Of a stretch of DNA of 64,000 nt, positions 20,004 through 62,273 are shown piece after piece. Positions within the stretch are counted from its first letter, which is position 1. Every line of letters starts with the position of its first letter. The stretch covers positions 96,001-160,000 of the forward strand of contig CAXXLQ010000004.1 of assembly GCA_963668695.2 (NCBI GenBank), read 5' to 3'. The translations under genes were made by a program, and so were the position numbers. The stretch is from Vicinamibacteria bacterium. GTDB taxonomy: Bacteria > Acidobacteriota > Vicinamibacteria > Marinacidobacterales > Marinacidobacteraceae. The notes beneath the pieces are model-generated. The model had not been told where the DNA came from. It did no database searches and worked only from the letters and a program-made list of their open reading frames with translations.

Positions 20004-20030
20004 CGGGGTCGAACTTGGGGCCGAACTTGG

Positions 20031-22394: not shown

Positions 22395-22430
22395 GGCCAC
22401 CTGCTACACCCCTTCCGATCTTGACTCTAG

Positions 22431-22628: not shown

Positions 22629-22712
22629 CTAGCATTCGCCATACCTCGAGACGGACCGCCGGCAGCCTGCGCGCCAGCGGCCGAATTCCTGGAAGAAGGA
22701 GGGAAGCGCTCC

Positions 22713-30700: not shown

Positions 30701-30831
30701 ATGTGCAGTTTACTTTGGATCTGCCGCTCACGAGGATCAAGAAGATCTCGCGCTTCCCGCCAGCGGCGAATGGCGGCCTGGAGGCCGGCGGTCCCTTGCC
30801 GGCGCGCCGTACCGGGGCCGGCGGTCCCTAG

Positions 30832-30966
30832 CAGCCGGTGGTGAAACCCAGGCGGCCCAGTTCTCCCGGTGGGGGCTCCTCCCTCACGCGCCTTGTCAGC
30901 CGGGCCCCCACCGGGAGAACTGGGCCTCGCCGCCCTCGGCGCTCACCCGGGTTCCGCCACCGGCTG
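30832..30966. mobile_element. Short MITE with perfect CTAG duplication at the DUF885 stop codon
   Basis: CTAG|CAGCCGGTGGTGAAACCC...GGGTTCCGCCACCGGCTG|CTAG. Confidence 0.85.
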
Positions 30967-32775
30967 CTAGCGCTCGGTCTCGATCCAGCGGCGGATGACG
31001 GTGTCCAGCACCGGGAGGGTGACCGGGCCGTTCAGCAGCACCGCGTCGTGGAAGGCGCGGATGTCGAAGGCGTCGCCAAGCTCGGCCTCGGCGAGGGCGC
31101 GCATCTCGCGGAGCTTGAGTTCCCCCATCTTGTAGCCGAGGGCCTGCCCCGGCCACGCGATGTAGCGGTCGGTCTCGGTGGTGATCTCGTGGATGGAGAG
31201 GGCGGTGTTGGCGGCCAGGTAGTCGAGGGTCGCTTGCCTCGTCCAGCCGAGGGCGTGCATCCCGGTGTCCACCACCAACCGGCAGGCCCTCCACATCTCG
31301 TAGGTGAGCCTGCCGAAGTTGTTGTAAGGGTCCTCGTAGAAGCCGACCTCGAGTCCGAGCCGCTCCGAATAGAGCCCCCAACCTTCGCTGTAGGCGCCGA
31401 TCCCGAAGTAGCGGCGGAACTCGGGCAGGTCGAGTTCCTTGGCCAGGGAGATCTGGAGGTGGTGGCCGGGGACCGCCTCGTGGAGCGAGAGCGACTCCAG
31501 GGTGTAGAGCGGCCGGCTGTCGAGCTGGTAGGTGTTGACCCAGTAACGTCCGGGCTGGGTTGAAGTGAGCGCCGCCCCGACGTAGCGGCCGCCGGTGTAC
31601 TTCGGGGCGATGGCGTCCGGGACCGGCTCGACGGTGTAGGGCTGGCGCGGGAGGCGCCGGAAGAGCCGCGGCAGCGCTCCGTCCATGCGCTTCACGATCC
31701 ACATCGCCTCCCGCAGCAACTCTTCGGGGGTGTCCACGTAGAAGCGGGGATCGGTGCGCAGGAACTCGAGGAACTCGGCGAAGGTCCCCTCGAACCCGGT
31801 GGCGCGCATCGCCTCTTCCATTTCGGCCCGGATGCGCTCCACCTCGGCGAGGCCGATTTGGTGGACCTCCTCGGCGGTCTGGTCGAGGGTGGTGAAGCGG
31901 CCGATCAGGAACGCGTAGTACTCGCGCCCGTTCGGCAGCTCGGAGGCGCCGATGCTCGTTCGGGCGGCGGGCCGGTATTCGTCCTCGAAGAAGTCGAGAA
32001 ACGTCTGGTACGCGGCCGCCGCTCCGCTGAGGATCGCCTCCGCTCCCTCGGCTCGCAGCCGGCCCCGCTCGGCCTCCGGGATCCGCTCGGGGAGCGAAGC
32101 GAAGGGCGCGTAGAAGACGCTTTCCTCCGGGTCTTCGACCACGTGGCTCGCGATCGTGACCTCGTACCCCTCGAGGACCACCCGGGGCACGGTCATTCCG
32201 AGTTCCATGCCGCGCCGCATGAGGGCGATGTGCTCCTCGAAGTAGCGGGGAATGTCGCGGAGCAGCGCGATGTAGGCGTCGTAGTCGGCCGCCGTGCGCA
32301 GCGGAAGCGAGTTCGGGAGGCGCGCCATCCCGATGTGGAATCCGGAATCGGCGTTGATCGGGAGGAAGTGGCCGCCGAACTGCGCGTCACCGATCTGCTC
32401 GGCGAGCGCCGCCTCGAAGATGTCCCGATGGACCTGGTCGTCGTCCGAAAGCCGCTCGCGGGGGATTTCGAGCAGCCGGTCCCGGAAACCGCGCGCCGCC
32501 GCCGCGCGCCGCTCGCTGTCGGCCTCGGTCATGGAGCCGAGAGTCGTCGGGGAAACGCCGTCGAGCGAGGCCGCAAAACGGGGCTCCTCCTGGCGGCGGA
32601 ACTCCATGAAGTCGTCGAAGAGCGCGTGGAGTTCGGCATCACCCGACGCGGGAACCGGCTGGGCGGGCGCCGGCGCGGGAACCGGCTGGGCGGGCGCCAG
32701 CGCGGGAACAAGCCCCGCCACCCCGAGCCAGAGGCCGATCCGGAGCGCGCGGGCGCAGAAGAGCGTGGAAATCAT
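30967..32775 (-). CDS. DUF885 family exported protein (zincin-like)
   Basis: HEAVPGHHLQ, YSEGWGLYSE, WRACRLVVDTGMH and WPGQALGY motifs; signal peptide. Confidence 0.9.
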   Translation of the reverse strand: MISTLFCARALRIGLWLGVAGLVPALAPAQPVPAPAPAQPVPASGDAELHALFDDFMEFRRQEEPRFAASLDGVSPTTLGSMTEADSERRAAAARGFRDRLLEIPRERLSDDDQVHRDIFEAALAEQIGDAQFGGHFLPINADSGFHIGMARLPNSLPLRTAADYDAYIALLRDIPRYFEEHIALMRRGMELGMTVPRVVLEGYEVTIASHVVEDPEESVFYAPFASLPERIPEAERGRLRAEGAEAILSGAAAAYQTFLDFFEDEYRPAARTSIGASELPNGREYYAFLIGRFTTLDQTAEEVHQIGLAEVERIRAEMEEAMRATGFEGTFAEFLEFLRTDPRFYVDTPEELLREAMWIVKRMDGALPRLFRRLPRQPYTVEPVPDAIAPKYTGGRYVGAALTSTQPGRYWVNTYQLDSRPLYTLESLSLHEAVPGHHLQISLAKELDLPEFRRYFGIGAYSEGWGLYSERLGLEVGFYEDPYNNFGRLTYEMWRACRLVVDTGMHALGWTRQATLDYLAANTALSIHEITTETDRYIAWPGQALGYKMGELKLREMRALAEAELGDAFDIRAFHDAVLLNGPVTLPVLDTVIRRWIETER

Positions 32776-32892
32776 GAAGCCGATGCTACCGAACCGCCTT
32801 CCGCCCGCCCGAGCAACGTTCCGGACCGGTGGAGCGCCCGGGACCTCCCGCGCGGCGAGCCGGGTAGACTCGAACCTCGATCGAGGTGCACC

Positions 32893-34587
32893 ATGAATGT
32901 GTCAAGAGGGAACGAACACGCACGCAGAAAATTCCTCGCCTACTTCTCGGGCGCCGGACTGACCACGACGCTCTTCCCCGGCGTGCTTTGGGCGCGTCTC
33001 CAGGAGAGCGGCGCGGAGAGCTTGAACATCGGCATGATGAAGGAGACCGCGGCTCTCGCCGGGCTTGAGTTCACCGACGAGGAATACGAGCTGATGGTGG
33101 ACGAGGTCAAGAAGAACTTCGACCACTACCACGAGATGCGGCAAACGCACCTCGACAACTCGGTACCTCCTCCCCTCTATTTCAACCCCGCCGTTCCCGG
33201 GATGAGGTTCGAGCGCACCGAACGGGCGTTGCGCCTGAGTGAAGTGCGCGGGGTGTCGCGTCCCGCCAATCTGGAGGATGTCGCGTTCTGGCCGGTGACC
33301 CGGTTGGCCCGCCTGATCGAGACGCGCGAGGTCAGCGCGCTCGAGCTGACCGACATGTATCTCTCGAGGCTCGAGCGGTTGAATCCGGTCCTCAACTGCG
33401 TCGTGACCCTCACCACGGACCGGGCGCGCGAACAAGCGCGGCAGGCGGATGAAGAAATCGCCGCCGGACGCTACCGGGGCCCGCTCCACGGCATCCCCTG
33501 GGGCGCCAAGGACATCATCGCGGTGCGCGGATACCGCACGACCTGGGGCGCCGCCCCCTTCGAGAATCAGGTCCTCGACGTGGACGCCGCCGTCGTCCAG
33601 CGTCTGGATGCGGCGGGCGCCGTGCTCGTCGCCAAGCTCACGACCGGCGAGCTGGCGTTCGGCGACCAGTGGTTCGGCGGGCGCACGAACAACCCGTGGA
33701 AGCCGGAGGAAGGTTCCAGCGGGTCGTCCGCCGGCTCGGGCTCGGCGGCCGGCGGCGGCCTCGTGGGGTTCGCGATCGGAACCGACACGGGCGGATCGAT
33801 CCTCTCGCCGGCGGTGCGGAACGGCGTCGTCGGCCTCCGCCCGACATTCGGGAGGGTCAGCCGCTACGGCGTGATGGCCGCCGGGTACACGCTGGACAAG
33901 ATCGGGCCCATGACGCGAATGGTCGAGGACAACGCTTTGGTCCTGCATGCCATTGCCGGGCCTGACGACCGCGACCTCGCCGTCGTCGCTGGCGTTCCGT
34001 TCAACTGGGACGGTACGGCTTCCGTGCGCGAACTGCGGTTCGGCTTTTTCGCGTCCGCGTTCGAAGAGGCGGATTCGCCGGAAGGCGAAGCGACTCTCGC
34101 CCACGCCCGCCGGAGTCTGGACACCCTCCGCTCGCTCGGCTATGACCTCAAACCCGTGGAGATACCGCGCAATCGACTCTCGTATTTCATCGAGTACGTC
34201 GAGCGGGCCGCCGGTTTCGACGAATTCGCGCGGACCCGGCAGGACACCGACCTGAAGCGGCAGCGGCATCGCGGCGAGCTGCGCGCGTCGCATCTCGTGC
34301 CCGCGGTCGAGTATTTGCAGGCCAACCGAATTCGCTACCTGTTCATGCAGGAGATGGCCAGCGTCATGGCGGAGCTCGACGTCGTCGTGTCCCCGTGGCG
34401 CGCGATCAATCCGCTCACGAGCATGACCGGCCACCCGGTCGTAACCGTGCCCAACGGTTTCGAAGAGGACGATACGCCGACCGGGATCTCCCTCATGGGA
34501 CGGATTTACGGAGAAGAGCGACTCCTGCTCGCCGCGAAAACGCTTCAGGACGCGACGGACTACCACCACCGCCACCCGAGTCTCTAG
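32893..34587 (+). CDS. Amidase signature family enzyme with Tat signal
   Basis: RRKFL Tat motif, GPLHGIPWGAKD, GSSGSSAGS and GTDTGGSI (Ser-cisSer-Lys triad region). Confidence 0.9.
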   Translation: MNVSRGNEHARRKFLAYFSGAGLTTTLFPGVLWARLQESGAESLNIGMMKETAALAGLEFTDEEYELMVDEVKKNFDHYHEMRQTHLDNSVPPPLYFNPAVPGMRFERTERALRLSEVRGVSRPANLEDVAFWPVTRLARLIETREVSALELTDMYLSRLERLNPVLNCVVTLTTDRAREQARQADEEIAAGRYRGPLHGIPWGAKDIIAVRGYRTTWGAAPFENQVLDVDAAVVQRLDAAGAVLVAKLTTGELAFGDQWFGGRTNNPWKPEEGSSGSSAGSGSAAGGGLVGFAIGTDTGGSILSPAVRNGVVGLRPTFGRVSRYGVMAAGYTLDKIGPMTRMVEDNALVLHAIAGPDDRDLAVVAGVPFNWDGTASVRELRFGFFASAFEEADSPEGEATLAHARRSLDTLRSLGYDLKPVEIPRNRLSYFIEYVERAAGFDEFARTRQDTDLKRQRHRGELRASHLVPAVEYLQANRIRYLFMQEMASVMAELDVVVSPWRAINPLTSMTGHPVVTVPNGFEEDDTPTGISLMGRIYGEERLLLAAKTLQDATDYHHRHPSL

Positions 34588-34605
34588 AGCCTCGGGCCCC
34601 GCGGT

Positions 34606-35790
34606 CTAGTTCGGCAGCTTCAGTTCCGCTGCCTCGCCCACGATCTCGAGCTCGGTTCCGAACTCCCTCGACTGCTCCACGATCAGTTCGAGCAGCTCCG
34701 TCGCGTCCGCCCCCGTGGCGAGGCGCGGCGCGCCGTGCGGATAGAACACGCGGTCAATGGTCGCTTCGTACGAAACCATCGGGGTCAGCGTCAACGACCT
34801 CAGACGGTCTTCCTCGAACGTGACGCTCGCCATGACCGTTCGCCAGGCGTCCACATCGGGTGCGTAGTAGATCGGGCGCCGCACCTGGAAGATCCAGTTC
34901 GACAGGCCGTACAGGATGGGCTTCCCCTTGTAAATCTCGATGCCGCGATTCACGGGAGTCCCGTGCGACAGATAGAGGTCAGCCCCGGCGTCGATCAGTT
35001 CGTGCGTGAGCTGGCGTCGCCAGGCGGCAACCGTCTCCCGCTGGGGCTGGTTGTTATGGCAGTGGTGGTACACCATGACGATCTGCGCGTGTCGTGCCGC
35101 CTCGCGGACGGAGGCCAGGAGGCGCTGCCGGTCGGCCTCGTCCACCTGCTGCGTCCGCTCGTCGAAGCCCACGAAGAACGCACCCGGCGTGTCTTCGGTC
35201 GCGTCACCTCCCTCGTAGATCAACGACGTCATCGAAACTAGCGCCACCAGACCGGCGGGGGTCTGCAGGTAGCCCGGAGCGCTCGCCTCCTCGACATTGG
35301 CTCCCGTCCCCGAGTAGGCGAATCCACCGCGGCGAGCACTCGTGATCGTCTGGAACACTCCGTCCGCGCCGAGGTCGTAGGAATGGTTGTTCGCGAGGCT
35401 GAGCAGGTTGACGTTGATCGCGCGCAGGCTCTCCATCGCACCACTCGTCGCGCGGTGCACGAGTCCGAAACGCTTGGGCCGCGCCGTGCCGTCCACCATG
35501 TCGGTCCTGTCCATCACCGCTTCGAAATTGGTGAACACGACGTCGTAGTCGGCGAGCACCTCGGCCATCTGTGTGGCGCTCTCTGGAGATTCCCGTCGCA
35601 GGTCGTAGCGGATGATCGACTGGCCGAACAGTGCCATGCGCAGCAGCCGCGCCTCCGCCGCGGGCGACTGGGGCTCCGTCTGGCCGGCCCCCGACGGAGC
35701 CGCCAGCCCGATCACAGCCAGCCCGATCACAGCCAGCCCGGCGAACAAACACGTGATCCGATGCACGACAGTCCTCCGTTCGTTCGTCAT
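34606..35790 (-). CDS. CapA/PGA_cap-like metallophosphoesterase-fold exported protein
   Basis: FTNFE, SLANNH, YSGTG, SHG and YGLSN motifs; ATG 35790 forms ATGA with the GGT stop. Confidence 0.85.
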   Translation of the reverse strand: MTNERRTVVHRITCLFAGLAVIGLAVIGLAAPSGAGQTEPQSPAAEARLLRMALFGQSIIRYDLRRESPESATQMAEVLADYDVVFTNFEAVMDRTDMVDGTARPKRFGLVHRATSGAMESLRAINVNLLSLANNHSYDLGADGVFQTITSARRGGFAYSGTGANVEEASAPGYLQTPAGLVALVSMTSLIYEGGDATEDTPGAFFVGFDERTQQVDEADRQRLLASVREAARHAQIVMVYHHCHNNQPQRETVAAWRRQLTHELIDAGADLYLSHGTPVNRGIEIYKGKPILYGLSNWIFQVRRPIYYAPDVDAWRTVMASVTFEEDRLRSLTLTPMVSYEATIDRVFYPHGAPRLATGADATELLELIVEQSREFGTELEIVGEAAELKLPN

Positions 35791-37853
35791 TCCGCGCGGT
35801 AGCTGCATTTCAGGTCGCGGCGCACCCGGCCGCCGCGGTACTGGATCTCGAGAAGTCCCTCACGTTCCTCGCCGGGCGCGAAGGTCTCCGCAGCCGGGTT
35901 CGCATTGACGAGGAGGGTGACGAGGTTGACGTCGTCGATCTCGTCTTCTCCGCGTCGCATGCCGGCAGCGGTGTAGGCGGTGTTCCCCAGGCGCCCGGTA
36001 CCCGGCCAGTGCTCCTGGGGGCCACTCTGGTGCTCGAGGTCGGCCGCGTCTCTCGTGACCACAACCTGCGTGCCCGGGCGCGTGGGAAACTCGGCATCCG
36101 ATATCACGAGCTGCGCCGGCGCCACGGGCCGGTCGGTGGCATAGCGGAGCGAAACGAGATAGCTGCCACCCCGCGCGTACTCGGGGACCCGCCCTTCGAA
36201 TTCCGAGCACTCCCAACCGGACGCGGGGGCCCTGCTTCCCTCGAAGGGTGCACCGCCGGCACTCGTCGAACCCGGACCCCTGGCGCTCCCTCGCCCGCGA
36301 GGGTCAGCGGCGCCGATCCACTCGCCACTCGCTGCGTCGAAGGCGACGGCATGAACACGCGCTGCCGGCTCGGTGACGATCTCGGTCTCGAAGCCAAGCT
36401 GCGCCAACTCCTCCGCGACGCCGGCTGCGCCATCGAACTCAAACCCGTCTCCCCGGGGGTGCACGCGCGGCGCCGCGACGGCATCGGGGAGGCTCAATCC
36501 CTGGGCGAGCACGCGACCCACGACGTTCACGATCGCACTGGGAATCCTTCTCCCCCCCGCGGCCCCGACAACGATCCGGGGGCGACCGTTCTCGAGCACC
36601 AGCAGCGGCGATTGGTTGAGCGAGGCTCTCTCACCGGGCTCGATGGGTCCCTTGTAGCCGCCGAGGGTTGCGGCGTAGAGGAAACCCAGGCCAGGCGTCG
36701 CGACCCCGGATCCGAAACTCGGTCCGAGGGATTGGGTCATGGCGACCACCATGCCGTTCCTGTCGGCGGTTGACAGGTGCGTGGTGTGGGCGTCGCCGTC
36801 TTCTCCCCACGTCGTCCCGGTGGCGGCCGGCCGAGTCCGCACCCGGGCAGCCCTCTCGACCGCGTGCTCGTGCGAGACCATCCGCTGCTCCTTCGTGATC
36901 TGGGGTCCGGGCAGTGTCTCTCTGTCTTCGAATGCCAGCGCGATCGCCTGACCGACGACCGCCGCCCACTCGGCGGGGCCGGCCCGCGGGAGATCGAACT
37001 GGTCCATGATCTGCAGAGCCTCGATCACCATGTAGCCCGACGGCGGCCGGCCGCTACCGACCAGCTCGTAGCCGCGGTAGTGGCCGCGTACGATTCGCAT
37101 GGGCTGCGCCTCGTACTTCGCGAGGTCCTCCTCTCGCACGTACCCACCGTTCGCGGAAATGTCTCGCGCCATCTGCCGGGCGATCTCCCCCCGGTAGAAA
37201 GCTTCCGGGCCTTTCTCCGCAATGACCCTCAAGGTACGCGCCAGATCGCGCTGGACGAGTCGCTCCCCGACCCGGTAGGGAGAGCCGTCAGGCTTGAGGA
37301 AGTAGCTTCTCGAACCCTCAAACTCGCTGAGGTGATCCGTGACCGTGCCGAAGCGAAGGGGAAAGCCCCGCTCGGCGAGCGCGATCGCTGGTGCGAGAAC
37401 ATCCGGAAGTGACAGTGTTCCGAACTCCCGCAGGAGTTGGGCGTAGGCGGCGACGGTTCCCGGCACGCCGATCGTGCCGTAACCGTATTTCGCCTCTGGA
37501 GCCTTCGAGGGATCGTAGCCCTCGGGCGCCTGGACCATTCCGTCGATGCCGTGCACGGAGCCGTCCGGAGTCCGCACCAGGGCCACGGCCCGCCCACCGA
37601 GGCCCGTCATCGCCGGGTGAACGACGGCCAGCACGAATCCAGCCGCGACCGCGGCGTCCACCGCGCTGCCTCCTCGCGCCAGCATCTGGACACCGGCGTC
37701 GGTGGCGCGAGGGTCCGCGGTGGCGACCATGCCGTCTCGCGAACGCGCGACCTGTTGCGGCTCTTCTTGCGGCTCTTCCGGGAGCGCACCCGATACCCGG
37801 CTCTGCGAGGCCGCGCACACGACGAGGAGTGCCGCGACGACTCTAGAAGCCAC
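35787..37853 (-). CDS. ggt: Gamma-glutamyltransferase family protein with C-terminal extension
   Basis: GGSAVDAAVAA, VPGTV, FYRGEIA, HTTHLS (Thr nucleophile), GAAGGRRI, PRVH and GAADPR motifs; AGGAGG RBS. Confidence 0.88.
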   Translation of the reverse strand: MASRVVAALLVVCAASQSRVSGALPEEPQEEPQQVARSRDGMVATADPRATDAGVQMLARGGSAVDAAVAAGFVLAVVHPAMTGLGGRAVALVRTPDGSVHGIDGMVQAPEGYDPSKAPEAKYGYGTIGVPGTVAAYAQLLREFGTLSLPDVLAPAIALAERGFPLRFGTVTDHLSEFEGSRSYFLKPDGSPYRVGERLVQRDLARTLRVIAEKGPEAFYRGEIARQMARDISANGGYVREEDLAKYEAQPMRIVRGHYRGYELVGSGRPPSGYMVIEALQIMDQFDLPRAGPAEWAAVVGQAIALAFEDRETLPGPQITKEQRMVSHEHAVERAARVRTRPAATGTTWGEDGDAHTTHLSTADRNGMVVAMTQSLGPSFGSGVATPGLGFLYAATLGGYKGPIEPGERASLNQSPLLVLENGRPRIVVGAAGGRRIPSAIVNVVGRVLAQGLSLPDAVAAPRVHPRGDGFEFDGAAGVAEELAQLGFETEIVTEPAARVHAVAFDAASGEWIGAADPRGRGSARGPGSTSAGGAPFEGSRAPASGWECSEFEGRVPEYARGGSYLVSLRYATDRPVAPAQLVISDAEFPTRPGTQVVVTRDAADLEHQSGPQEHWPGTGRLGNTAYTAAGMRRGEDEIDDVNLVTLLVNANPAAETFAPGEEREGLLEIQYRGGRVRRDLKCSYRAE

Positions 37854-37954
37854 CAGGGTAAGACCTCCTTGCTCTGAACTCGCGGAGCAGACGCTCAGCG
37901 GCCTCGATTGTAAGTGTCAGAGCGCGGTACCCTCTCGCGGAGCCGGCGGCCTAG

Positions 37955-38151
37955 CAGCCTGTGGATGAAGTGGCGTGAGTGCCGAGGCGGGCGAGGCGCC
38001 CGGCTGACAAGGCGCGCGAGAGAGGAATACCGAGTGTATTTCGACCGCAGCGCAACGATGAGGGCCGCGAAGCGGCACGTTTCAGCCGGGATGCATCGCC
38101 CGCCGAGCCCCCACCGGGAGAACTGGGCCGCGTGACTTTGTCCACAGGCTG
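37955..38151. mobile_element. MITE with perfect CTAG duplication at a CapA-like gene stop
   Basis: CTAG|CAGCCTGTGGATGAAG...CTTTGTCCACAGGCTG|CTAG. Confidence 0.9.
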
Positions 38152-39252
38152 CTAGGGCACCGTTTCGAGTTCGACGAAGGCCCGGCCGTCACGAAGCGAG
38201 AGCGTGGTTCCCAGTGCCGACGAGAGTTCGGTGAGACGCTTCAGGATCCGTGCGCTGCGTTCCGGTCGCGCCACCTCGGGGTAGCCTCGCTTCTCGAAGA
38301 AGAACTCTCCGGGCACACCGTGGTCGAGGGCGATCGGCGTCAATGAAATCGACCGCACGCCGCTCTTCGCGAGCGTCATCTCAACGATGACGCTCTCCCA
38401 GACGTCGTCGGGATAGTGATCCAGCTCCGTCCTGCTGTGGAAGATGAAGTTACCGAGCCCATAGAACATCGGCCGGCCGCGATACAGCTCGACGCCACTG
38501 AGCGTGGGCTGACCGTGGCTCACGTACAGGCTCGCCCCCGCGTCCACTGCCGCGCGCGCCCATCGGCGCTGCCAGCCCCCCGGGTCGTCGACTTGGAAGT
38601 GCTGATAGGCGATCACCACGTCGGCATTCCTCGCGGCCTCCTGAATCGCAGCGATGTTGCGATCCCAGCCAGCCTGATCGTCGAGCCCGAGCAGATTCAC
38701 GCCAGGTCGCACCTCGGTCGCCGCGGCCTCGGGGGGGTTGTTCACGGTGGCCATCGCGACCAGCGCGAACTTCAGCCCACTCACCTCGCGGTACGCTGGA
38801 GCCGTGGCTTCTCGCAGATTCGCTCCGGTGCCCGCGTGGGTGAACCCCCGGTGCGTCACCTCCAAGATGGTCGATACGATCCCGGTCGCCCCGTAGTCCC
38901 ACGAGTGATTGTTCGCCAGCGACAGCATGTCGACTTTGATTTCACGCAGGTAATCCAGGACAGCCGGGCCGGCGCCGTGGAAGAAGGTCCCCTCTCGTGT
39001 CGGGGCGCATTCGCAACCCTCGCCGCGCACGGCCACTTCAAGGTTGGTGAAGACGAGGTCGGCCGAGGCGAGAATCGGCGTGACCGTTCGCAGCGGCGCC
39101 TCGAGGTACGGCCGTGGATCGTGCTCGATCAGCGCCTGCCCCAGCAAGACCACGTGGGTCGAATCGTCGTCGGATGACGCCTGGGGAGCCTCGCCCGAGC
39201 AGCCGGACAGCGCGGGAATCGAGAGCGCGAGAACGATGGATGTCGCCTTCAT
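38152..39252 (-). CDS. CapA/PGA_cap-like lipoprotein
   Basis: Lipobox LSGC; FTNLE, SLANNH, HAGTG, SHG and YGLGNF motifs. Confidence 0.87.
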   Translation of the reverse strand: MKATSIVLALSIPALSGCSGEAPQASSDDDSTHVVLLGQALIEHDPRPYLEAPLRTVTPILASADLVFTNLEVAVRGEGCECAPTREGTFFHGAGPAVLDYLREIKVDMLSLANNHSWDYGATGIVSTILEVTHRGFTHAGTGANLREATAPAYREVSGLKFALVAMATVNNPPEAAATEVRPGVNLLGLDDQAGWDRNIAAIQEAARNADVVIAYQHFQVDDPGGWQRRWARAAVDAGASLYVSHGQPTLSGVELYRGRPMFYGLGNFIFHSRTELDHYPDDVWESVIVEMTLAKSGVRSISLTPIALDHGVPGEFFFEKRGYPEVARPERSARILKRLTELSSALGTTLSLRDGRAFVELETVP

Positions 39253-39338
39253 GAATTGGCGCCCCTCGTTGGGTCTCTAATCAATGCGATCCGCTGACGC
39301 CAAAGGTTCGATGTCCGGCTCATGCTGAAGGCCTCGGT

Positions 39339-42197
39339 CTAGAACCGGAGGTCGATGCCCACGCGGAATGATCGCGCCGGGAGGATGGCGATCACTTCCT
39401 TGAAGCGGGAGCCGGAGGTCGTCCGGAAGTTGGTCACGGTGCCCGCGTTCAACACGTTCGACACGTCCAGGAGCACCGACAGCGTCGTTCCGCTTGCACC
39501 GACGGTGAAGTCCTTGTCCAGGCGCAGGTCCCAGATGCGCAGGCTCGGGCCGCGGTTGCTCGCGACAGGCTCCGCCGGCATGTTCTCCCGGCCCGCTTCG
39601 GGGAGGCGGGGGGTGATCCGGCGCGCCCACGGGTAGCCGCTGTGGAACCGGTAGGTCGTCGAGGTGCCCAGACCCCACCACGGGGTCTCATACCGTCCGA
39701 CAACCTTGTAGGTGTAGGTGGTCGTGCTTTCGGGGCTGTAGCGACGCCGGTTCGGTCTCCACTCGAAAACGCTGCGGACGTGGACCGGGTCCTGCGGACC
39801 GGTCCGCGAGCTCTCGTCGTAGAACTGGTTGGTCCAGGTGTGGCCGGCCGACGCGAGCAGCATCCACCGGTCCCGGAAGCGGCGATGAACGGCGAGTTCC
39901 AGGGTGTGATGGTCGGCGTCGTGGGCGGGGGTGCCCGCGTCGGGGCCCGGGTTCGTGAGCACGTTGTTCGATGAGACTCCGTCCTCCCGATCGAAGATGT
40001 TGAGCGTCTGGTCGTCCGCGGTGCCCGCCTCGTTGTCCGGCCCCACGTCCACGAAGGTGAACGGGACCGTGTAGGCGACGGCCCGATTGAGGTCCACGAT
40101 CGCGATCTGACGCCTGAGGTTCTTGTAGACCCACGAGACTCTGAGCGACGTGCTCAGGCCGATCTCGCGCTCGAAATGCGCCGACAACTCCTCGCCGTAG
40201 GGCTGCTTGAGGTCGGGGTCCGTGACCTGGCCGCCGGCGCCGCCTTCTGTATCGAGCAGACGCCCGAGTTCGCTGGCGCCATCAAGCACCCGGTTCCCGT
40301 TGAGATCGGCGAACTCCCAGCGCTGCGACGAATAACCGAGCGGGTTGGCGTCTTCGGTGAGGTTGTCGATGGGGTCGAGATAGAAGCGTCCGGCGAAGAC
40401 CTTGAGCACCGTGCTGCCGTCGCCGCTCACGTCCCACGCCACGCCGCCGCGGGGAGCGAACTGGTTCCATGTCACCACGGTTTCGGCTGACACCGAGTCA
40501 ACCGGGAAGAACCCCGTCCGGTTGGGCGTGTTGGTCTCGTCCGGCCATCCCAGCACGTAGTTGTCGTAGCGCACTCCGAGGTTCACCGTGACTCGCGGCG
40601 AGACGTTCCAACTGTCCTGCGCGAAGAAGCCGAAGTTTCGGTTGTGGTTCTCCACATCGATCGGCGTATTGAAGACGTCAACCTCGACGGGAATGCCTTC
40701 CTCGTCGTAGTAGTAGGCGTCTCCGGCGTTGAAGCGGCGGAGCCCGCCAGTGAACTTGTTGACGTCAACGCCTACTTTGAAGGCGTGGTCCCCCGGGGAC
40801 CAGGAGAGACTGCCGCTGAACTGGGGCCTGTGGTCCGTCGTGTTCCGCTGAAGGGGATTCGGCCCGGTCAACTGGCCGGTGGTCAGCTCCTGCCGCCCGG
40901 GCTCGATTCCTTCAACCGACTCGCTCTTGTTCGCCGGATTGGTGCGCAGGTTCGTCGCGTGGTGGAGGCCGACCTGCACGTCGAGGAACATCCGATCCGA
41001 CAGGACGCTCGTCCACTCGATCTTTCCGATGTGCATCCTGCCGATCTGGTACTGCGCGGACTCCGGTGGAACCACCGCGCTGACGCCCCGCTGCGGGTCG
41101 AACTTCTCGCGCCAGGCGTAGTAACCGATCAGGGTGTTGCGTGCGTTGAGCGCGTAGTTGACCTTGGTGCTGACGTTGCGCAGCCGGGTCTGCGCCTCCT
41201 GACCGGGTAACCCGACGATGTTGCGCTGGATGTCGTGCTCGCGGACGCTGGTATAGAACCATGCCTTGCCCCGCCGGATCGGGCCGCCGAAATCGGCGTT
41301 CACGTCATGCATGCTGGTGATGCTGCTGCCCTCCCCGAAGCCGCCGCGAGGCGCCCCGAAGCCGTCCCCGTCCACGCCGCCGGACTCGGCGAGGGCCGAG
41401 GGCACGTTGTCGCTCCGCATGCCGTCGTTTTGGAAACTGAAGTGCGTGCTGCCATGGAAGTCATTCCCACCCGACTTGACCGTGAAGTTCAGCAGCGCGC
41501 CGGGCCCCGAGTTCTCCCCCATGTTGCCCGACGACCCGAGTTCGAACTCCTCGTAGCTGCCGAAGTCGAAATACGCGCTGTTGCTGGTCTGGCTGTTGTT
41601 GGAGCGGACGCCCTCGATATAGGTGACGTGCCCCACGGCGATGCCGTAGGCGCTGAAGCGCGTCTGCGAACCGACGTGCGAGCCGCCCACGTCGACGCCC
41701 TGCATCTCGAAGCCCGGCGCGAGCGTCATCGCGCTCCAGACATCACGGGCCGTCGGGACCGTCGCCAGCGTCTCCCTGTCGAAGCTCGTTCCCGTGGCGG
41801 TGCTCTTGACGTCCACGATCGGCGCCTCAGCCACGACAGTGACCTCTTCGGTGACCCCGCCGGGGGCCAGCGTCGCGTTCACCGTGAGCGTCCTGCGCAG
41901 CGTGAGCCCGATCCCCTCGTGCCGGACGGTCTGGAAACTCGCGAGTTCGAAGGTCACTGAGTAGACGCCCGGCGGGAGCGACACAAAGCGGTACCGGCCG
42001 TTCGTCGCGGTGACGACGGTCCGCGGTTGGACCAGTGCCGGCCCGGCCGCCGTGACCGTAACTCCCGGTAGAACACCGCCGGTCGAGTCGGTCGCGACGC
42101 CGACGATGTCGCCGCGCAGCTCCTGAGCAGCTACCTCAGGAGCGAGGCCACCGATCAGGCAACAACAGAAAACAACAAAACCTGTTAACGCACGCAT
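39339..42197 (-). CDS. TonB-dependent receptor, Oar-like (carboxypeptidase regulatory-like N-domain)
   Basis: DSTGGVLPGVTVT, KSGGNDFHG, FAQDSW...NLGVRYD and APR motifs; C-terminal Phe; ATG 42197 with GGAG RBS. Confidence 0.9.
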   Translation of the reverse strand: MRALTGFVVFCCCLIGGLAPEVAAQELRGDIVGVATDSTGGVLPGVTVTAAGPALVQPRTVVTATNGRYRFVSLPPGVYSVTFELASFQTVRHEGIGLTLRRTLTVNATLAPGGVTEEVTVVAEAPIVDVKSTATGTSFDRETLATVPTARDVWSAMTLAPGFEMQGVDVGGSHVGSQTRFSAYGIAVGHVTYIEGVRSNNSQTSNSAYFDFGSYEEFELGSSGNMGENSGPGALLNFTVKSGGNDFHGSTHFSFQNDGMRSDNVPSALAESGGVDGDGFGAPRGGFGEGSSITSMHDVNADFGGPIRRGKAWFYTSVREHDIQRNIVGLPGQEAQTRLRNVSTKVNYALNARNTLIGYYAWREKFDPQRGVSAVVPPESAQYQIGRMHIGKIEWTSVLSDRMFLDVQVGLHHATNLRTNPANKSESVEGIEPGRQELTTGQLTGPNPLQRNTTDHRPQFSGSLSWSPGDHAFKVGVDVNKFTGGLRRFNAGDAYYYDEEGIPVEVDVFNTPIDVENHNRNFGFFAQDSWNVSPRVTVNLGVRYDNYVLGWPDETNTPNRTGFFPVDSVSAETVVTWNQFAPRGGVAWDVSGDGSTVLKVFAGRFYLDPIDNLTEDANPLGYSSQRWEFADLNGNRVLDGASELGRLLDTEGGAGGQVTDPDLKQPYGEELSAHFEREIGLSTSLRVSWVYKNLRRQIAIVDLNRAVAYTVPFTFVDVGPDNEAGTADDQTLNIFDREDGVSSNNVLTNPGPDAGTPAHDADHHTLELAVHRRFRDRWMLLASAGHTWTNQFYDESSRTGPQDPVHVRSVFEWRPNRRRYSPESTTTYTYKVVGRYETPWWGLGTSTTYRFHSGYPWARRITPRLPEAGRENMPAEPVASNRGPSLRIWDLRLDKDFTVGASGTTLSVLLDVSNVLNAGTVTNFRTTSGSRFKEVIAILPARSFRVGIDLRF

Positions 42198-42334
42198 TTC
42201 ATACTCTCCACGGGACACCCCAACGCTGACAAGAAGCCGACTAGTTTCACTGCCAGGACGACTTACGACGCCGACCCAGCCTCCGCAGCCTCGTTTTCGT
42301 TTACCGGCGAACCCTTTGATCATGAGTCTCCCAG

Positions 42335-42350
42335 CATGCCTATATGCATG
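42335..42350. promoter_or_regulatory. Near-palindromic candidate operator CATGCCTATATGCATG
   Basis: 16-bp palindrome with one mismatched pair in the divergent intergenic region; overlaps a TTGACA on the minus strand. Confidence 0.4.
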
Positions 42351-42685
42351 TCAAACGGGAAGGTTGGCCAGGGCAGATAGCGCTGAGGGGCCCCTTGCGC
42401 TCGTTCCCGAAGGGGGATCCCTTGTACGACCATACTTCGGGGCAGGATCGTACATTGGATCCTTCCACCGGGGAGGTTGTATCGTCGAACGAACCCTGGG
42501 CTCGGCGTCCTCATCGGTCAAACACTGCTGGTACTCTCGCTTCATTCTCGACCGCGCCTCCGCGCACCGAGACGCCCCTGGTGCCTCTCACCATGATCGG
42601 ACCCCATGATCGGACCCCTCGCCACCCCATGATGCTTACCGTGGTGGGACGTGTCGATCGCAGCGGGAGGGGGATCGCGTCGGGG

Positions 42686-43714
42686 ATGAGAAAGGCTGTC
42701 GTCGCCATCACTTTGATGTGCGCTGCCGCCGGCCAGGCGGCAGAGCTGCCCGTGGTCAAGCTCTTCACCACCGGCGGCACGATTCGGAGCCTTGGGTCGG
42801 ATCGCCTGAAGCTCCACGAATACGGCGACGGGCGCATCGACGGCGAGACGATGGTCAAAGACGTGCCCGAGGCCTCCCAACTGGCGCGGATCGAGGTGGA
42901 AGAGATCTCGTCGGTCAGCAGCCGCAACATGGGTGCCGAACAGCAGTTGCACCTCGCTCGACGGATCATGAGCGAGCTGGAGAGGCCGGACGTCGCCGGT
43001 GCGGTCGTCACCCACGGAACCACGACTCTGGAGGAAACGGCCTATTTCCTCCAGCTCACGGTCAAGACGAACAAACCGGTGGTTGTCGTTGGTGCGATGC
43101 GGCCCTGGAGCGCGATCAGCCGGGACGGGCCGCTCAACTACCTGGGCGCGGTCCGCACCGTGCTCACCCCGGAGGCGACCGGCAAGGGCGTCATGGTGCT
43201 GCTCAACGGCACGATCCACTCCGCCCGCTTCGTGACCAAGACGCATACCTACCATGTCGAGACGTTCGTGTCCCGCGAAGTCGGCCCGCTGGGCTTCGCC
43301 GACTCCGATCGCGTGGTGTTCTACCGCTCGCCGGTCACCCGCCACACCAGCGCCACCGAGTTCGACCTCAGCGAGATCGAGTCGCTCCCCCAGGTCGACA
43401 TCGTCTACGGGTATCAGGAGGCCTCCCGCTCCCCCATCGACGCGCTGACGGAGGAGGGTGTGAAAGGCATCGTCCTGGCCGACGACTCGCCGGCCTATCG
43501 CAACGCGCTGCTGGAGGCCAGGGCCGCCGGCGTGGTCGTGGTGCAGGGGAGCCGCAAGGGTGCCGGCCGGGTCGTGCTCAGCGCTCGCGCCGCGGCGCGG
43601 GGCGAGGTCACGGCCGACAATCTCAACCCTCAAAAGGCGCGCATCCTGCTTCGTCTCGCCCTCACCCGGACGACCGACACGAAGGAACTGCAGCGGATCT
43701 TCAATGAGTACTGA
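42686..43714 (+). CDS. Exported L-asparaginase/glutaminase family protein (type II-like)
   Basis: Signal peptide, TTGGTI, HGTTTLEETAYF, VGAMRP, DGPLN and NLNPQKARILL motifs. Confidence 0.88.
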   Translation: MRKAVVAITLMCAAAGQAAELPVVKLFTTGGTIRSLGSDRLKLHEYGDGRIDGETMVKDVPEASQLARIEVEEISSVSSRNMGAEQQLHLARRIMSELERPDVAGAVVTHGTTTLEETAYFLQLTVKTNKPVVVVGAMRPWSAISRDGPLNYLGAVRTVLTPEATGKGVMVLLNGTIHSARFVTKTHTYHVETFVSREVGPLGFADSDRVVFYRSPVTRHTSATEFDLSEIESLPQVDIVYGYQEASRSPIDALTEEGVKGIVLADDSPAYRNALLEARAAGVVVVQGSRKGAGRVVLSARAAARGEVTADNLNPQKARILLRLALTRTTDTKELQRIFNEY

Positions 43715-44861
43715 GGGACCCGAGCCGCGCCGGCGGGTCGCGAAGGGGCGGAGGGCTGTGCTCAGCATCGCCGGGGGAGTCGCGGCGCTCCTGGCGGCGG
43801 CCACTCCGGGCGCTCAGGAAATACCACCGCTGCCGCCGCCGGGCCTCGATCTGCCGCACGTCGTGCTGGTTTCCATGGGCGGAGAGATCGCCAGGAACTG
43901 CGACACCCGCCTCGAGCTTGCCGGCTGCGAGACGAACACCGAGAGCATCGGACCGGAGACCTGGACCCGCGACCTGCCCGATCTGCGACTCGTCGCCCGG
44001 TTGACGACCGAGGACCTGCGGGCTCTCCTGCGGGCTCTCCCGCGTGCCGGTGGGGGATCGACCACGGAGCACTGGTACCGGGTCGCGGGACGCTTGCAGG
44101 AACTCGCCGACGATCCCGGAGTTGACGGCGTCGTCGTCGCCCATGGGACGGCTGGGCTCGCGGACACGGCCTATTTCATGAATCTCGTGGTGCGAACCCG
44201 AAAGCCGCTGGTCTTCGTCGGCGCCCAGCGTCCCTGGAGCGGGATGAGCGGCGATGGCCCGCTCAACCTCTACAACGCGGTTCGGGTGGCCGCGACCCCG
44301 GCTGCCGGCGGCAAAGGGGTGCTGCACGCCACGAACCAGGAGGTGCACGCGGCGCGCGACGTGATGAAGACGAGCGCAAACCGGGTGGACGCTTTCCAGA
44401 GCGTGGACCTCGGGCTGATCGGGGTGGCGGACCCCGACACCGTCAAGTTCTTCTCCGAACCGACCCGCAGACATACCTATCGCTCCGAGTTCCCGCTCGC
44501 GGCGCTCCCGGAAGCGCTTCCCGCGGTGGAGATCGTGACTGCGTATCCGGACGCGCCGGGCCGCGTGATCGATGAACTGGTGGCGGCGGGAGCGAAGGGC
44601 CTGGTGGTCGATGGCGCCGGGCCGGACAGTCTGTCCGGCGGCCAGCTCGAGGCGGTGCGACGTGCGCTGGAAAAGGGCGTCGTCGTCGTCGCCACGGCGC
44701 CCACGCGCGGCGGCCGCGTGCAGCACACGGCTTTCACTCGCGAGTCCGGAATCATCCCCGGCGACAACCTGGCGCCCGGAAAGGCGCGGACGCTGCTCCG
44801 GCTGGCGCTGACGAAGACCACCGACCCCGGGGAGATCCAGCGAATCTTCCAGGAATATTAG
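43704..44861 (+). CDS. Asparaginase-like paralog with altered active-site motifs
   Basis: SMGGEIA in place of TGGTI, HGTAGLADTAYF, GAQRP, DGPLN and NLAPGKAR; overlaps the upstream gene by 11 bp. Confidence 0.82.
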   Translation: MSTEGPEPRRRVAKGRRAVLSIAGGVAALLAAATPGAQEIPPLPPPGLDLPHVVLVSMGGEIARNCDTRLELAGCETNTESIGPETWTRDLPDLRLVARLTTEDLRALLRALPRAGGGSTTEHWYRVAGRLQELADDPGVDGVVVAHGTAGLADTAYFMNLVVRTRKPLVFVGAQRPWSGMSGDGPLNLYNAVRVAATPAAGGKGVLHATNQEVHAARDVMKTSANRVDAFQSVDLGLIGVADPDTVKFFSEPTRRHTYRSEFPLAALPEALPAVEIVTAYPDAPGRVIDELVAAGAKGLVVDGAGPDSLSGGQLEAVRRALEKGVVVVATAPTRGGRVQHTAFTRESGIIPGDNLAPGKARTLLRLALTKTTDPGEIQRIFQEY

Positions 44862-44886
44862 GGACGGCTCCGGACCTCAAGGAACC

Positions 44887-46104
44887 ATGAGACTACGAAA
44901 AAGCACCGCAGGCCTGGCCCTGTTCCTTACCGCGCTGCCTGTGCCGGGTTCCGATGCGATCGCCCGGCAGAACGACGAATCGAGCGTCACGCTTGCCATC
45001 GTGGGTCAGGCACTGATCAAGGTGGATCCGCGAGAACAGTGGCCCAACCCCTTCGCCGGAATCCGACCGATCCTCCGGGATGCCGATGTCGCCTTCACCA
45101 ACTTCGAGATGGCGGTGGACGACGAGTGCGGCGTTCCCCCTGACTACCAGGTCGTGCTCGGCGAGCCCGAGCTCGACGAGGAGCAGCGGCCCGGCAACAC
45201 CGGCGGGCCCCACGCGGTCCGCGAGCACGTGATGGACTTTCTCGCGTCCATGAATTTCGGTCTCCAGTCCCTCGCCAACAACCATTCGTGGGACCTCGGA
45301 GACTGCGGCGTCATGGCGACCATCGCGGCCGCCGAAAAGTACGGCGTGACGCACGCCGGAACCGGAAGAAACCTGGAGGAGGCGACGCAGGCGGCCATCA
45401 TCGAGGTGAAAGGCCTCCGGATCGCGCTGCTGGCGGCGACGACTTCGCTGGATGAGAGAGACCTCATCCTGCCCACGCCGTCCAGCCCGGGGGTGAATGG
45501 CGTCTGGATCGGGCGCCAGGACGACTGGGATCGGAACATCGAGGCCGTCCGTTCCGCCGCGCAGCGGGCCGACTTCGTCATCTACTACCAGCACTTCCAG
45601 ATCACGAATGAGGATCTGTCCGGGGACCGCTCGAGCCGGGTCCAGGGTCATCTCGAGGTCGACGACGTTCAGGATTGGCAGTCCCGCTTCGCAAAGGCCG
45701 TAATCGACGCCGGGGCCGGCATGTTCATCGCGCACGGCGATCGCATCTTCGACGGCGTCGAGATCTACCGGGGCAGCCCGATCATCCGGCAGTTCGGAGG
45801 ATTCGCCTACCAGGGACTCCAGGCGGAGGGCTCCTACGATCCGCTCGTGTGGGAAGGGCTCCTGGGGACTGTGACGATTCGGGCCGGACGCGTGAGCGCC
45901 ATGGAGGTGTTGCCCCTCCGGCTCGACGAGGGGCGGGAGGGCGAATACGGCGGTGAGGTCGAGTTCCGGCAGAAGCGAGGCTTTTCCGACCTGGCCGCGG
46001 CAGAGCAGGGACGCCGGATCCTCGAGCGATTCGCCGAACGCTCCCGAAACTACGGCACGAGCGTGCGGCTCGAAAACGGGCGCGCGCTGATCGAGGGCTG
46101 GTGA
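44887..46104 (+). CDS. CapA/PGA_cap-like exported protein
   Basis: FTNFE, SLANNH, HAGTG and AHG motifs; AGGA RBS. Confidence 0.85.
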   Translation: MRLRKSTAGLALFLTALPVPGSDAIARQNDESSVTLAIVGQALIKVDPREQWPNPFAGIRPILRDADVAFTNFEMAVDDECGVPPDYQVVLGEPELDEEQRPGNTGGPHAVREHVMDFLASMNFGLQSLANNHSWDLGDCGVMATIAAAEKYGVTHAGTGRNLEEATQAAIIEVKGLRIALLAATTSLDERDLILPTPSSPGVNGVWIGRQDDWDRNIEAVRSAAQRADFVIYYQHFQITNEDLSGDRSSRVQGHLEVDDVQDWQSRFAKAVIDAGAGMFIAHGDRIFDGVEIYRGSPIIRQFGGFAYQGLQAEGSYDPLVWEGLLGTVTIRAGRVSAMEVLPLRLDEGREGEYGGEVEFRQKRGFSDLAAAEQGRRILERFAERSRNYGTSVRLENGRALIEGW

Positions 46105-46210
46105 CTGCCCGGGCGGGACGAAAACGCCGCCGACGGAACCGGCCCTGTCAGACCCGCGCCTGTCAGACCCACGCAGAAGCCGCGCGCGGCAGCGCGTCGG
46201 CGCCTGGGCG

Positions 46211-49066
<2,856 letters not shown>

Positions 49067-55933: not shown

Positions 55934-55981
55934 GCGCCGGTCGGGCGAACGGACCCGGTGCTCTCGCTGGGGAGGCCCGAG

Positions 55982-56196
55982 CAGCCTGTGGACAAAGTCC
56001 CGCGGCCCAGTTCTCCCGGTGGGGGCTCGAGCGGCGATCCATCCCGGCTGAAACGCTCGGTTCCACCTCGCTCGTCGTTGCACTTAGGTCGAAATACACT
56101 CGGGCCAGTTCTCCCGGTGGGGGCTCCTCCCTCGTGCGCCTTGTCAGCCGGGCGCCTCGCCGCTCTCGGCGCTCACGCCACTTTATCCACAGGCTG
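55982..56196. mobile_element. MITE at the ltaE stop codon
   Basis: cgag|CAGCCTGTGGACAAAG...CTTTATCCACAGGCTG|CTAG. Confidence 0.88.
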
Positions 56197-62269: not shown

Positions 62270-62273
62270 TTAA

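Follow-up and report, generated by a model that had tools for sequence, protein, structure and literature searches.

The CapA-like proteins at the centre of this study have, by sequence, a single relative of solved structure, MslH, an epimerase that acts on the C-terminal Trp of a lasso peptide (PDB 8GQ9; Nat Commun 2023, PMC10406935). In that paper the metal ligands of MslH are Glu44, Asn87, His259 and His261, and catalysis requires two His/Asp pairs, His88/Asp91 and His295/Asp11, the variants D11A and H295N being inactive. The authors also proposed (PMC8179263) that the CapA of capsule systems is an epimerase, a suggestion that concerns the GD type of the family discussed below. Here we describe a locus from a marine Vicinamibacteria bacterium (Acidobacteriota), in a stretch of 64,000 nucleotides (contig CAXXLQ010000004.1, positions 96,001 to 160,000; hereafter the window), in which three CapA-like proteins (CapA1-3) are encoded with an outer-membrane barrel protein, a protein of the γ-glutamyltranspeptidase (GGT) family, two proteins resembling type II asparaginases (Asn1 and Asn2) and an amidase. 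CapA1-3 are assigned to a branch of their family that is separate from the capsule-type CapA, and the genes may form a lineage-specific cluster that imports a nitrogen-rich, peptide-like compound over the outer membrane and breaks it down in the periplasm, a reading that we regard as evenly balanced between right and wrong.

The gene set was obtained from a listing of open reading frames (ORFs), filtered on third-position G+C (G+C is ∼68% across the window), and from Pfam and NCBIfam scans, which agree with the genes, positions and divergent order given in a preliminary description of this DNA. The locus comprises two divergent transcription units and a convergent amidase gene, and encodes only products with export-type N-termini:

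32893-34587, plus strand: amidase-signature protein (PF01425, E 8.4e-82, 276 bits)
34606-35808, minus strand: CapA1 (PF09587, PGA_cap, E 4.8e-43, 147.9 bits against a cut-off of 27)
35787-37853, minus strand: GGT-family protein (PF01019, E 3.2e-104, residues 56-522)
35790-36266, minus strand: orphan C-terminal extension of the GGT-like protein, ∼165 residues, matched only by its own 50% cluster and by the copy in a close relative (L001, below)
38152-39252, minus strand: CapA2 (PF09587, E 2.5e-48, 165.2 bits against a cut-off of 27)
39339-42197, minus strand: outer-membrane barrel protein (PF25183 and CarboxypepD_reg; ORF to 42323, likely start 42197)
42198-42685: control region separating the divergently oriented receptor and Asn1 genes
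42686-43714, plus strand: Asn1, type II asparaginase-like (ORF from 42344, likely start 42686)
43704-44861, plus strand: Asn2, type II asparaginase-like (ORF from 43560, likely start 43704)
44887-46104, plus strand: CapA3 (PF09587, E 5.7e-36, 124.7 bits against a cut-off of 27)

A GQ-type branch of the CapA family

CapA1-3, which at 35-40% pairwise identity are classed as old paralogues, all match the NCBIfam model of MslH at 66-133 bits, against a cut-off of 700, and a phmmer search with CapA2 retrieved MslH with an E value of 6.6e-23. The AlphaFold (AF2) model of CapA2 (predicted local distance difference test, pLDDT, 87.7) was aligned by Foldseek to the MslH structures 8GQ9 and 8ITH with template modelling (TM) scores of 0.81-0.82 (E 3.5e-30), compared with ≤0.47 for other metallophosphatases. 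More than 1152 homologues of CapA2 were found at E ≤ 1e-10. Alignment to MslH showed that CapA1-3 retain the equivalents of Glu44, Asn87 and His259 and the His88/Asp91 pair, while Asp11 is replaced by Gln and His295 by Pro or Arg. The position of the fourth metal ligand, His261, is occupied by Gln in CapA2 and, depending on the alignment, by His or Gln in CapA1 and by Gln or Glu in CapA3. The motif of CapA1 reads GQ...NNH..D...H.H...HGxP, and the end motif is HGxP or HGxR across the three proteins; the CapA of plasmid pXO2 is of a GD...HHxH type that keeps Asp and His at the Asp11 and His295 positions. CapA1-3 thus do not have both catalytic pairs of an MslH-type two-base epimerase, the second (Asp11/His295) being replaced in all three; the overall fold is shared, as seen for CapA2.

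A single scan of a genome collection, seeded with an alignment of 25 CapA2 relatives, returned 80 loci, each fetched with up to 10 kb per side. The tree built from 76 proteins of these loci, CapA1-3, a Sinorhizobium meliloti homologue and pXO2 CapA (n=81) derives from a quick search with no mixture model, and the tool flagged several of its branches as long. In this tree 73 of the 81 rows, CapA1-3 among them, form one clade with an SH-aLRT value of 100. The eight rows outside it, which are pXO2 CapA, one protein from Bacilli and six from Myxococcota or Blastocatellia, are exactly the eight that carry GD...HHxH. The alignment columns follow the same division: the Asp11 position holds Gln in 66 rows, Asp in 8 and Arg in 1, with 6 gapped, and the His295 position holds Pro or Arg in 72 and His in the 8 GD rows, with 1 gapped. 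CapA1 lies within a 26-row clade, starred in the tree, together with receptor-linked and rhizobial members. On these grounds CapA1-3 are placed in a separate 'GQ' branch of the PGA_cap/MslH fold and not with the capsule-type CapA.

The preliminary description had noted that capB and capC are missing beside the CapA genes, and a tblastn search with pXO2 CapB and CapC (E ≤ 1e-3) extends the observation, with no match in the window or in the 80 related loci. Nor was there a Mur-ligase or CapC family among the recurrent ORFs clustered within 7 kb of CapA across these loci. The capsule-type CapA/PgsA identity was ruled out on the GQ and HGxP/HGxR motif, the separate clade and the absence of capB/capC from the window and the 80 loci.

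A search among longer proteins identified 21 PGA_cap fusions, of which 9 join a GQ-type domain to PF00144, 1 joins a GD-type domain to VanY and M15, and 6 join a GD-type domain to S11 and YkuD; there were 5 others. The GD-type fusions (P0402, P0403 and P0405-P0409), some of which are from Parcubacteria, carry either VanY and M15 or an S11 DD-carboxypeptidase and a YkuD L,D-transpeptidase. The fusion partners, PF00144 included, are all domains known from work on D-alanine-ended cell-wall peptides, and the GD-type fusions link the PGA_cap family as a whole to such peptides. The PF00144 domains score far below the cut-offs of class C β-lactamase models.

Neighbourhoods of GQ-type CapA genes

ORFs within 7 kb of CapA were clustered across the 80 loci and the recurrent clusters were annotated. 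A gene for a TonB-type receptor is present within the fetched stretch at 25 of the 80 loci and at none of the 7 with a GD-type CapA, the latter being a weak control because the phyla differ. Three recurrent layouts were observed. Type C comprises 14 loci of alphaproteobacterial type (Caulobacteraceae, Hyphomonadaceae, Rhodospirillaceae and Sphingomonadaceae). In most of them CapA is directly divergent from the gene for a TonB-dependent receptor that carries both Plug and barrel domains; 10 of the 14 encode an S15 (CocE/NonD) hydrolase, 10 a LysR regulator and 8 an AbgT transporter. Type B comprises eight loci (L002, L003, L004, L006, L012, L019, L025 and L027) from Longimicrobiales and from metagenome-assembled genomes of sponge-type Gammaproteobacteria. 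Here the gene immediately upstream of CapA encodes an Amidohydro_3 protein, the pair is divergent from an operon encoding a sulfoacetaldehyde acetyltransferase (above its NCBIfam cut-off), a class III aminotransferase and an Amidohydro_3 protein, and a receptor gene is then present in seven of the eight; the composition of this operon hints at the breakdown of a taurine-containing amide. In type A (∼15 Gemmatimonadota loci) CapA is convergent with genes for a class V aminotransferase and an SDF symporter, and in five of these loci it is fused to a PF00144 domain of the serine peptidase/β-lactamase fold.

One Gemmatimonadales locus (L044, 4389-16287) encodes, in order, FecR, a SusC-like receptor, a weak SusD (404 residues, its SusD match of 22.3 bits falling just short of the 23.1-bit cut-off), CapA and GGT, followed by a convergent S9 peptidase; it has the layout of a polysaccharide utilization locus (PUL) drawn around amide hydrolases. 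Elsewhere CapA is found with LysR, S15, a receptor and an amidase (L046), between an amidase and a receptor (L058), after an M19 dipeptidase, SDF and GNAT (L028), after a family-5 peptide-binding protein (L047), after AraC, two permeases and a binding protein in Paenibacillus (L067 and L069), amid TctC receptors (L078) and near an Amidase_2 muramoyl-alanine amidase (L050). In a tblastn search of plasmids and chromids (421 records), S. meliloti pSymB and a Rhizobium etli plasmid displayed the order binding protein, two permeases, ATPase, CapA family protein and pepT, an operon on which we found no paper in the open-access literature.

The predicted location of GQ-type CapA follows the transporter, receptor-linked members having a Tat-type or lipoprotein signal and ABC- or TTT-linked members none. 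An RR motif followed by a hydrophobic stretch is seen in 13 of the 14 type C proteins, and a lipobox cysteine in most of types A and B. In the proteins linked to ABC or TTT systems (S. meliloti, L047, L068, L069, L075 and L078) 6-17 residues precede GQ, even in the longest ORF. The adjacency of GQ-type CapA to transporters and to amide or peptide hydrolases, which recurs in several unrelated lineages, therefore supports the catabolic, import-linked role for CapA-like proteins that had been put forward for this DNA. Our search of the open-access literature gave no paper that describes these proteins as catabolic or receptor-linked.

Within the collection, the closest counterpart of the locus is on a Candidatus Marinacidobacterium chromosome (L001; OZ252286.1; Acidobacteriota, Vicinamibacteria), where all ten genes, counting the two flanking genes described below, stand in the same order with 86-97% protein identity. 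The shared gene order shows that the block is not an assembly accident. As the set is complete in L001 only, the full complement is lineage-specific.

The amide hydrolases, the barrel protein and the window

The GGT-like protein was compared with chain 2E0W of E. coli GGT, the numbering offset being verified at each residue, and with sequences of canonical GGTs and CapD; its homologues were aligned with MAFFT. The Thr nucleophile is kept (HTTH, corresponding to E. coli Thr391), and AAGG aligns to Gly483/Gly484, the Gly-Gly pair that we take to be the oxyanion hole. In contrast to these conserved features, the substrate pocket is altered by the replacements R114M, N411G, Gln430 to Ala or Thr, D433G, S462L and S463N, the last two at positions that presumably bind the donor head group in GGT, and the lid loop is absent. 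A GGT review gives Arg114, Asn411, Gln430 and Asp433 as the residues that make up the conserved donor pocket, names Gly484/Gly485 for the Gly-Gly pair, and reports that E. coli GGT gains glutaryl-7-aminocephalosporanic acid (glutaryl-7-ACA) acylase activity through D433N (PMC8062742). The γ-glutamyl substrate envisaged in the preliminary description is not supported by this alignment, as the GGT-like protein lacks the residues that, in the same review, hold a γ-glutamyl donor by its free amino and carboxyl groups (PMC8062742); with these head-group binders replaced, it does not have the donor pocket of a glutathione-type γ-glutamyltranspeptidase. The GGT of L044 likewise lacks Arg114, Asn411 and Asp433, and the canonical Arg/Asn pair occurs in 24 of 125 aligned GGT representatives, the closest relatives of the GGT-like protein having a non-Arg residue and Gly. 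With TIGR00066 the protein scores 302 against a cut-off of 357.85. It is 28% identical to pXO2 CapD (E 3.5e-45), which, unlike the GGT-like protein, keeps Arg114. For the C-terminal extension, Pfam at E ≤ 1 returned only a chance-level match to DUF4537 and the ESM Atlas no usable match, and BLASTP detected no similarity to P0244, the nearest homologue with extra length.

Asn1 and Asn2 are 41% identical. Asn1, which scores 333.6 with the TIGR00520 subfamily model, above the cut-off of 314.3, keeps the equivalents of Thr12, Tyr25, Thr89 and Lys162, but Asp90 is replaced by Thr and the 'gsgng' loop of the C-domain is five residues shorter than in the aligned reference. In Asn2 the C-domain loop is kept, while Thr12 is replaced by Glu, with loss of the nucleophile, and Asp90 by Ala. 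Asp90 and Lys162 are reported to be invariant and indispensable in L-asparaginases (PMC6667453). Neither protein has the full catalytic set of a type II L-asparaginase, and an Asn or Gln substrate is likewise not supported. A family set of the 120 best homologues of Asn2 (P0122-P0241), Asn1 and Asn2 gave 122 rows, of which 65 have Thr12 without Asp90 (mostly with Asn there), 56 have Glu12 and 1 has Ala; Thr12 and Asp90 occur together in none. The homologues of Asn2 are many, share 57-95% identity with it and come from Acidobacteriota and Opitutales. They make up an entire subfamily of 'type II asparaginases' that, across the 122 rows, has no member with both Thr12 and Asp90. Each active site in the asparaginase family combines the N-domain of one subunit with the C-domain of the other. 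Given this architecture, the translational coupling of Asn1 and Asn2 and their complementary losses suggest that the two may form a heterodimer with one re-specified active site.

The amidase displays KD and GSS...TGGS motifs, to which we assign, as an assumption, the Ser-cisSer-Lys triad. It falls below every NCBIfam equivalog cut-off, its closest solved chains are GatA and the periplasmic peptide amidase 1M21, and an N-terminal region of ∼130 residues belongs to no known family.

The barrel protein is presumed to be a TonB-dependent receptor. It matches PF25183 at 142.8 bits and, at the N-terminus, CarboxypepD_reg (PF13620) at 54.6 bits; ∼220 residues between this domain and the barrel lack a domain match, and the start was set at MRALTGF, which is preceded by a GGAGAG Shine-Dalgarno sequence. 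The earlier label 'TonB receptor' calls for caution: TonB_dep_Rec_b-barrel (PF00593) reaches 23.5 bits, below its cut-off of 27, and Plug was not detected. In the divergent spacer ∼290 bp at the receptor side, which include ∼125 bp translatable from an upstream in-frame ATG, are almost identical to L001 (6143-6916), where the spacer is longer by ∼300 bp in its middle. A promoter and terminator scan of 32700-46300 found sites no more frequently than in shuffled sequence, with one promoter-like site in the divergent spacer.

The preliminary description also reported coupling of the genes by ATGA or overlap, which applies to two of the five same-strand junctions. The GGT stop codon and the second in-frame ATG of CapA1 (alternative start 35790) form ATGA, and Asn1 and Asn2 overlap by 11 nt, so that GGT to CapA1 and Asn1 to Asn2 are translationally coupled; the remaining junctions, Asn2-CapA3, receptor-CapA2 and CapA2-GGT, have gaps of 25, 86 and 298 nt. 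The adjacent convergent Tat amidase was recovered as described, with an RRKFL start that is Tat-like and 18 nt between its stop codon and that of CapA1. An export signal on every product had likewise been claimed, and export-type N-terminal segments, judged by eye from the translations, are seen in each: a LSGC lipobox in CapA2, Sec-like N-termini in GGT, the barrel protein, Asn1 and CapA3, and an Arg-rich start followed by a hydrophobic segment in CapA1 and Asn2.

Two further genes flank the locus:

30967-32775, minus strand: DUF885 protein (PF05960, E 1.7e-170)
46211-49066, minus strand: B12-binding radical SAM protein, unrelated (TIGR03960/TIGR03936 fusion)

The DUF885 protein has a signal-like N-terminus, its gene is divergent from the amidase gene across a 117-nt spacer, and its syntenic copy in L001 is 93% identical; it is possibly a member of the set. 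A link of the locus to peptides that are made on the ribosome and modified after translation (RiPPs), such as lasso peptides, via the adjacent radical SAM gene was rejected in view of the fusion architecture, no lasso genes being seen.

The CapA2-GGT spacer contains a 203-bp hairpin-forming repeat element (37952-38154), whose terminal TAG is the stop codon of CapA2. The repeat is ∼200 bp long, has terminal inverted repeats of 14 bp (TAGCAGCCTGTGGA) and folds as a long hairpin (−114 kcal/mol, z −5.8), and its ends match the window 16 times against 0.12 expected. Ten further full or partial copies are at 55980-56199, 22428-22631, 13333-13484, 62095-62272, 62271-62419, 20030-20209, 63595-63814, 89-212, 11467-11596 and 30829-30969, and the repeat-end TAG is also the stop codon of DUF885 and of a lyase gene at 56197. 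At the CapA2-GGT site L001 lacks 164 bp of the repeat, which looks like a miniature inverted-repeat transposable element (MITE) or an element of the repetitive extragenic palindromic (REP) type. Rfam, applied at gathering thresholds to the complete window, spacer and repeat element included, gave no matches. The window is also rich in genes of amino-acid and peptide metabolism, encoding two DUF1028 proteins (16699-18254 and 57306-58532), one of which has TPR repeats and is followed by a RidA-family gene, an M17 aminopeptidase, a β-eliminating lyase and an SSF symporter. At 6495-11327 two tandem TrkH genes precede a TrkA gene in which the TrkA-N and TrkA-C domains are duplicated, an ordinary potassium uptake system.

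A possible pathway, its rivals and related systems

If the genes do act together, the barrel protein would admit a peptide-like, nitrogen-rich substrate, and the three GQ-type CapA proteins may alter or cleave a peptide terminus via their retained metal site and His/Asp pair; as one of the two base pairs of MslH is missing, this chemistry may differ from epimerisation. The GGT-fold N-terminal nucleophile (Ntn) hydrolase, the amidase and the putative Asn1/Asn2 heteromer would cleave amide bonds to yield amino acids and ammonia. The products would be taken up by general transporters, because none is encoded in the cluster. Residues that hold a free α-amino or α-carboxyl group are missing from the pockets of the GGT-like and asparaginase-like proteins, which makes glutathione, free Asn and free Gln improbable substrates; our best guess is a blocked, amidated, D- or γ-linked peptide. 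The version of import and breakdown in which D- or γ-linked or amidated peptides, for example those derived from peptidoglycan, are the substrates is nevertheless a tentative one that we consider rather unlikely to hold. Similarly doubtful is a joint proposal in which the GQ-type 'CapA family', thousands of proteins annotated as serving capsule synthesis, would be metal-dependent peptide-terminus epimerases or hydrolases, the locus a receptor-fed periplasmic pathway for necromass peptides, and Asn1/Asn2 an obligate heterodimer. If correct, GQ-type CapA proteins would let bacteria use peptides beyond the reach of L-specific peptidases (D-amino-acid-containing, γ-linked or amidated, such as stem peptides of dead cells), the three CapA paralogues would be specialized, the GGT-fold hydrolase would act on internal or blocked γ-glutamyl-type bonds, and Asn1 and Asn2 would pool two half-degenerate subunits into one working, re-specified site.

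Several observations weigh against the view that the genes form one import-and-breakdown cluster. Co-conservation of the whole set, which the preliminary description had led us to look for, is not borne out: among the 80 loci only the close relative L001 has asparaginase-like genes, the other 79 having none, and the relationship to L001 is too shallow to tell whether the nine genes cooperate. Six of the 80 have a GGT gene within 10 kb; apart from L001, this gene is adjacent to CapA in L044 only, and in four loci it is ∼8 kb off and on the other strand. The amidase type is present in 4 of the 80. Receptor genes are common in these phyla, and the figure of 25 stands without a base rate from random loci. 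At the locus itself the barrel protein has no Plug (PF07715) at E ≤ 1, no NCBIfam match and no PDB sequence match, neither an inner-membrane transporter nor a regulator is encoded in the cluster, and the export signals rest on judgement by eye. Clustering of exported hydrolases may also be a genome-wide habit, as the window encodes others (the two DUF1028 proteins and the M17 peptidase).

These points feed a rival explanation in which there is no single system and the locus is a run of independent exported hydrolases in a hydrolase-rich genome, the barrel protein being unrelated. The restriction of the full set to L001, the quite different neighbours of CapA2 orthologues elsewhere (types A, B and C), the mobile-looking repeat within the 298-nt CapA2-GGT spacer, the lack of a shared regulator and the further exported hydrolases in the window are all consistent with it. 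It is less easily reconciled with two translationally coupled junctions, with three old CapA paralogues within 12 kb, with the return of the receptor-CapA-GGT module in an unrelated phylum (L044) and with the receptor-CapA adjacency repeated in several clades, and we view it as unlikely, though a serious contender. Import is likewise dispensed with if the enzymes serve envelope upkeep, editing or recycling the cell's own peptidoglycan peptides in the periplasm. The periplasmic location of all products agrees with such a role, as do the muramoyl-alanine amidase near CapA in L050 and the fusions of PGA_cap to PF00144 (9 of GQ type), to VanY and M15 (1) and to S11 and YkuD (6 of GD type). The neighbours of CapA, on the other hand, include receptors, ABC, AbgT, SDF and TTT transporters and LysR, AraC and FecR regulators, which is typical of substrate-induced catabolism, and cytoplasmic CapA members sit after ABC importers and before pepT; we consider this explanation quite improbable.

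Two further proposals fare worse. Inactivation of an antibiotic or xenobiotic amide, such as a β-lactam or peptide antibiotic, would fit the loss of Asp433 from the GGT-like protein, given that replacement of this residue confers glutaryl-7-ACA acylase activity on E. coli GGT (PMC8062742), and also the fusion of CapA relatives to PF00144 and the presence of an amidase. It is very improbable, as there is no efflux or resistance regulator, the genes next to CapA in other lineages encode peptidases and nutrient transporters, and the PF00144 domains resemble class C β-lactamases so poorly. Synthesis or remodelling of a poly-γ-glutamate capsule by CapA and a CapD-like GGT, with capB/capC elsewhere, is suggested by the Pfam matches to PGA_cap and G_glu_transpept and by the alignment of pXO2 CapD to the GGT-like protein. 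The tblastn search for capB/capC, confined to the window and the 80 loci, was empty, CapA1-3 are of GQ type, stand apart from pXO2 CapA on the tree and carry lipoprotein or Sec signals, and the GGT-like protein lacks the Arg114 that CapD retains, all of which leaves the capsule hypothesis scarcely credible.

The annotation 'CapA family protein' is common in genomes and implies capsule synthesis, and the suggested part of the large GQ branch in nutrient breakdown would mean that many annotations need correction. It would also point to a new enzymatic step in the bacterial use of unusual peptides, a sizeable and poorly understood share of marine and soil organic nitrogen. CapA relatives are present in cultivable Caulobacter, Sinorhizobium and Paenibacillus, and the remodelled GGT-like and asparaginase-like proteins flag uncharacterized subfamilies under familiar names.

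Among known systems, SusC/SusD-type PULs and other nutrient loci centred on a TonB receptor share with the window a barrel gene clustered and co-oriented with exported degradative enzymes, L044 adding FecR, a SusC-like receptor and a weak SusD. A receptor gene stands co-oriented with enzyme genes in the window and in L001, the module recurs in L044, and receptor-CapA pairs occur in 25 of the 80 loci; the full set is not conserved. In contrast to PULs, the window has amide hydrolases, with no glycoside hydrolase, SusD-like gene, sensor/regulator or detectable Plug. The rhizobial ABC-CapA-pepT operons resemble it in placing a GQ-type CapA, 37-38% identical to CapA2, beside an uptake system and a peptidase, but their CapA is cytoplasmic, with no signal, their importer is of the ABC type in place of an outer-membrane barrel, and they have no GGT, asparaginase-like gene or amidase. 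With MslH the CapA-like proteins share the fold, including the extra domains; they differ in being exported, and lasso-peptide genes were not seen nearby. The CapA/PgsA of pXO2 capBCADE belongs to the same Pfam family (PF09587) at 26-27% identity, its partners capB, capC and capE not being found here. E. coli GGT (2DBU/2E0W) and a class IV cephalosporin acylase (2NLZ) share with the GGT-like protein the Ntn-hydrolase fold, the Thr of TTH and the Gly-Gly pair, and differ from it in the remodelled pocket, the missing lid loop and the extra orphan C-terminal domain. Asn1 and Asn2 have both domains and the periplasmic location of E. coli AnsB (type II L-asparaginase/glutaminase-asparaginase), from which Asn1 departs by Asp90Thr, Asn2 by Thr12Glu and Asp90Ala, and both by their arrangement as a coupled tandem pair. 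We rate the locus as a receptor-centred utilization cluster, a known kind of system, whose newer content is the GQ clade and the apparently re-specified GGT-like and asparaginase-like subfamilies.

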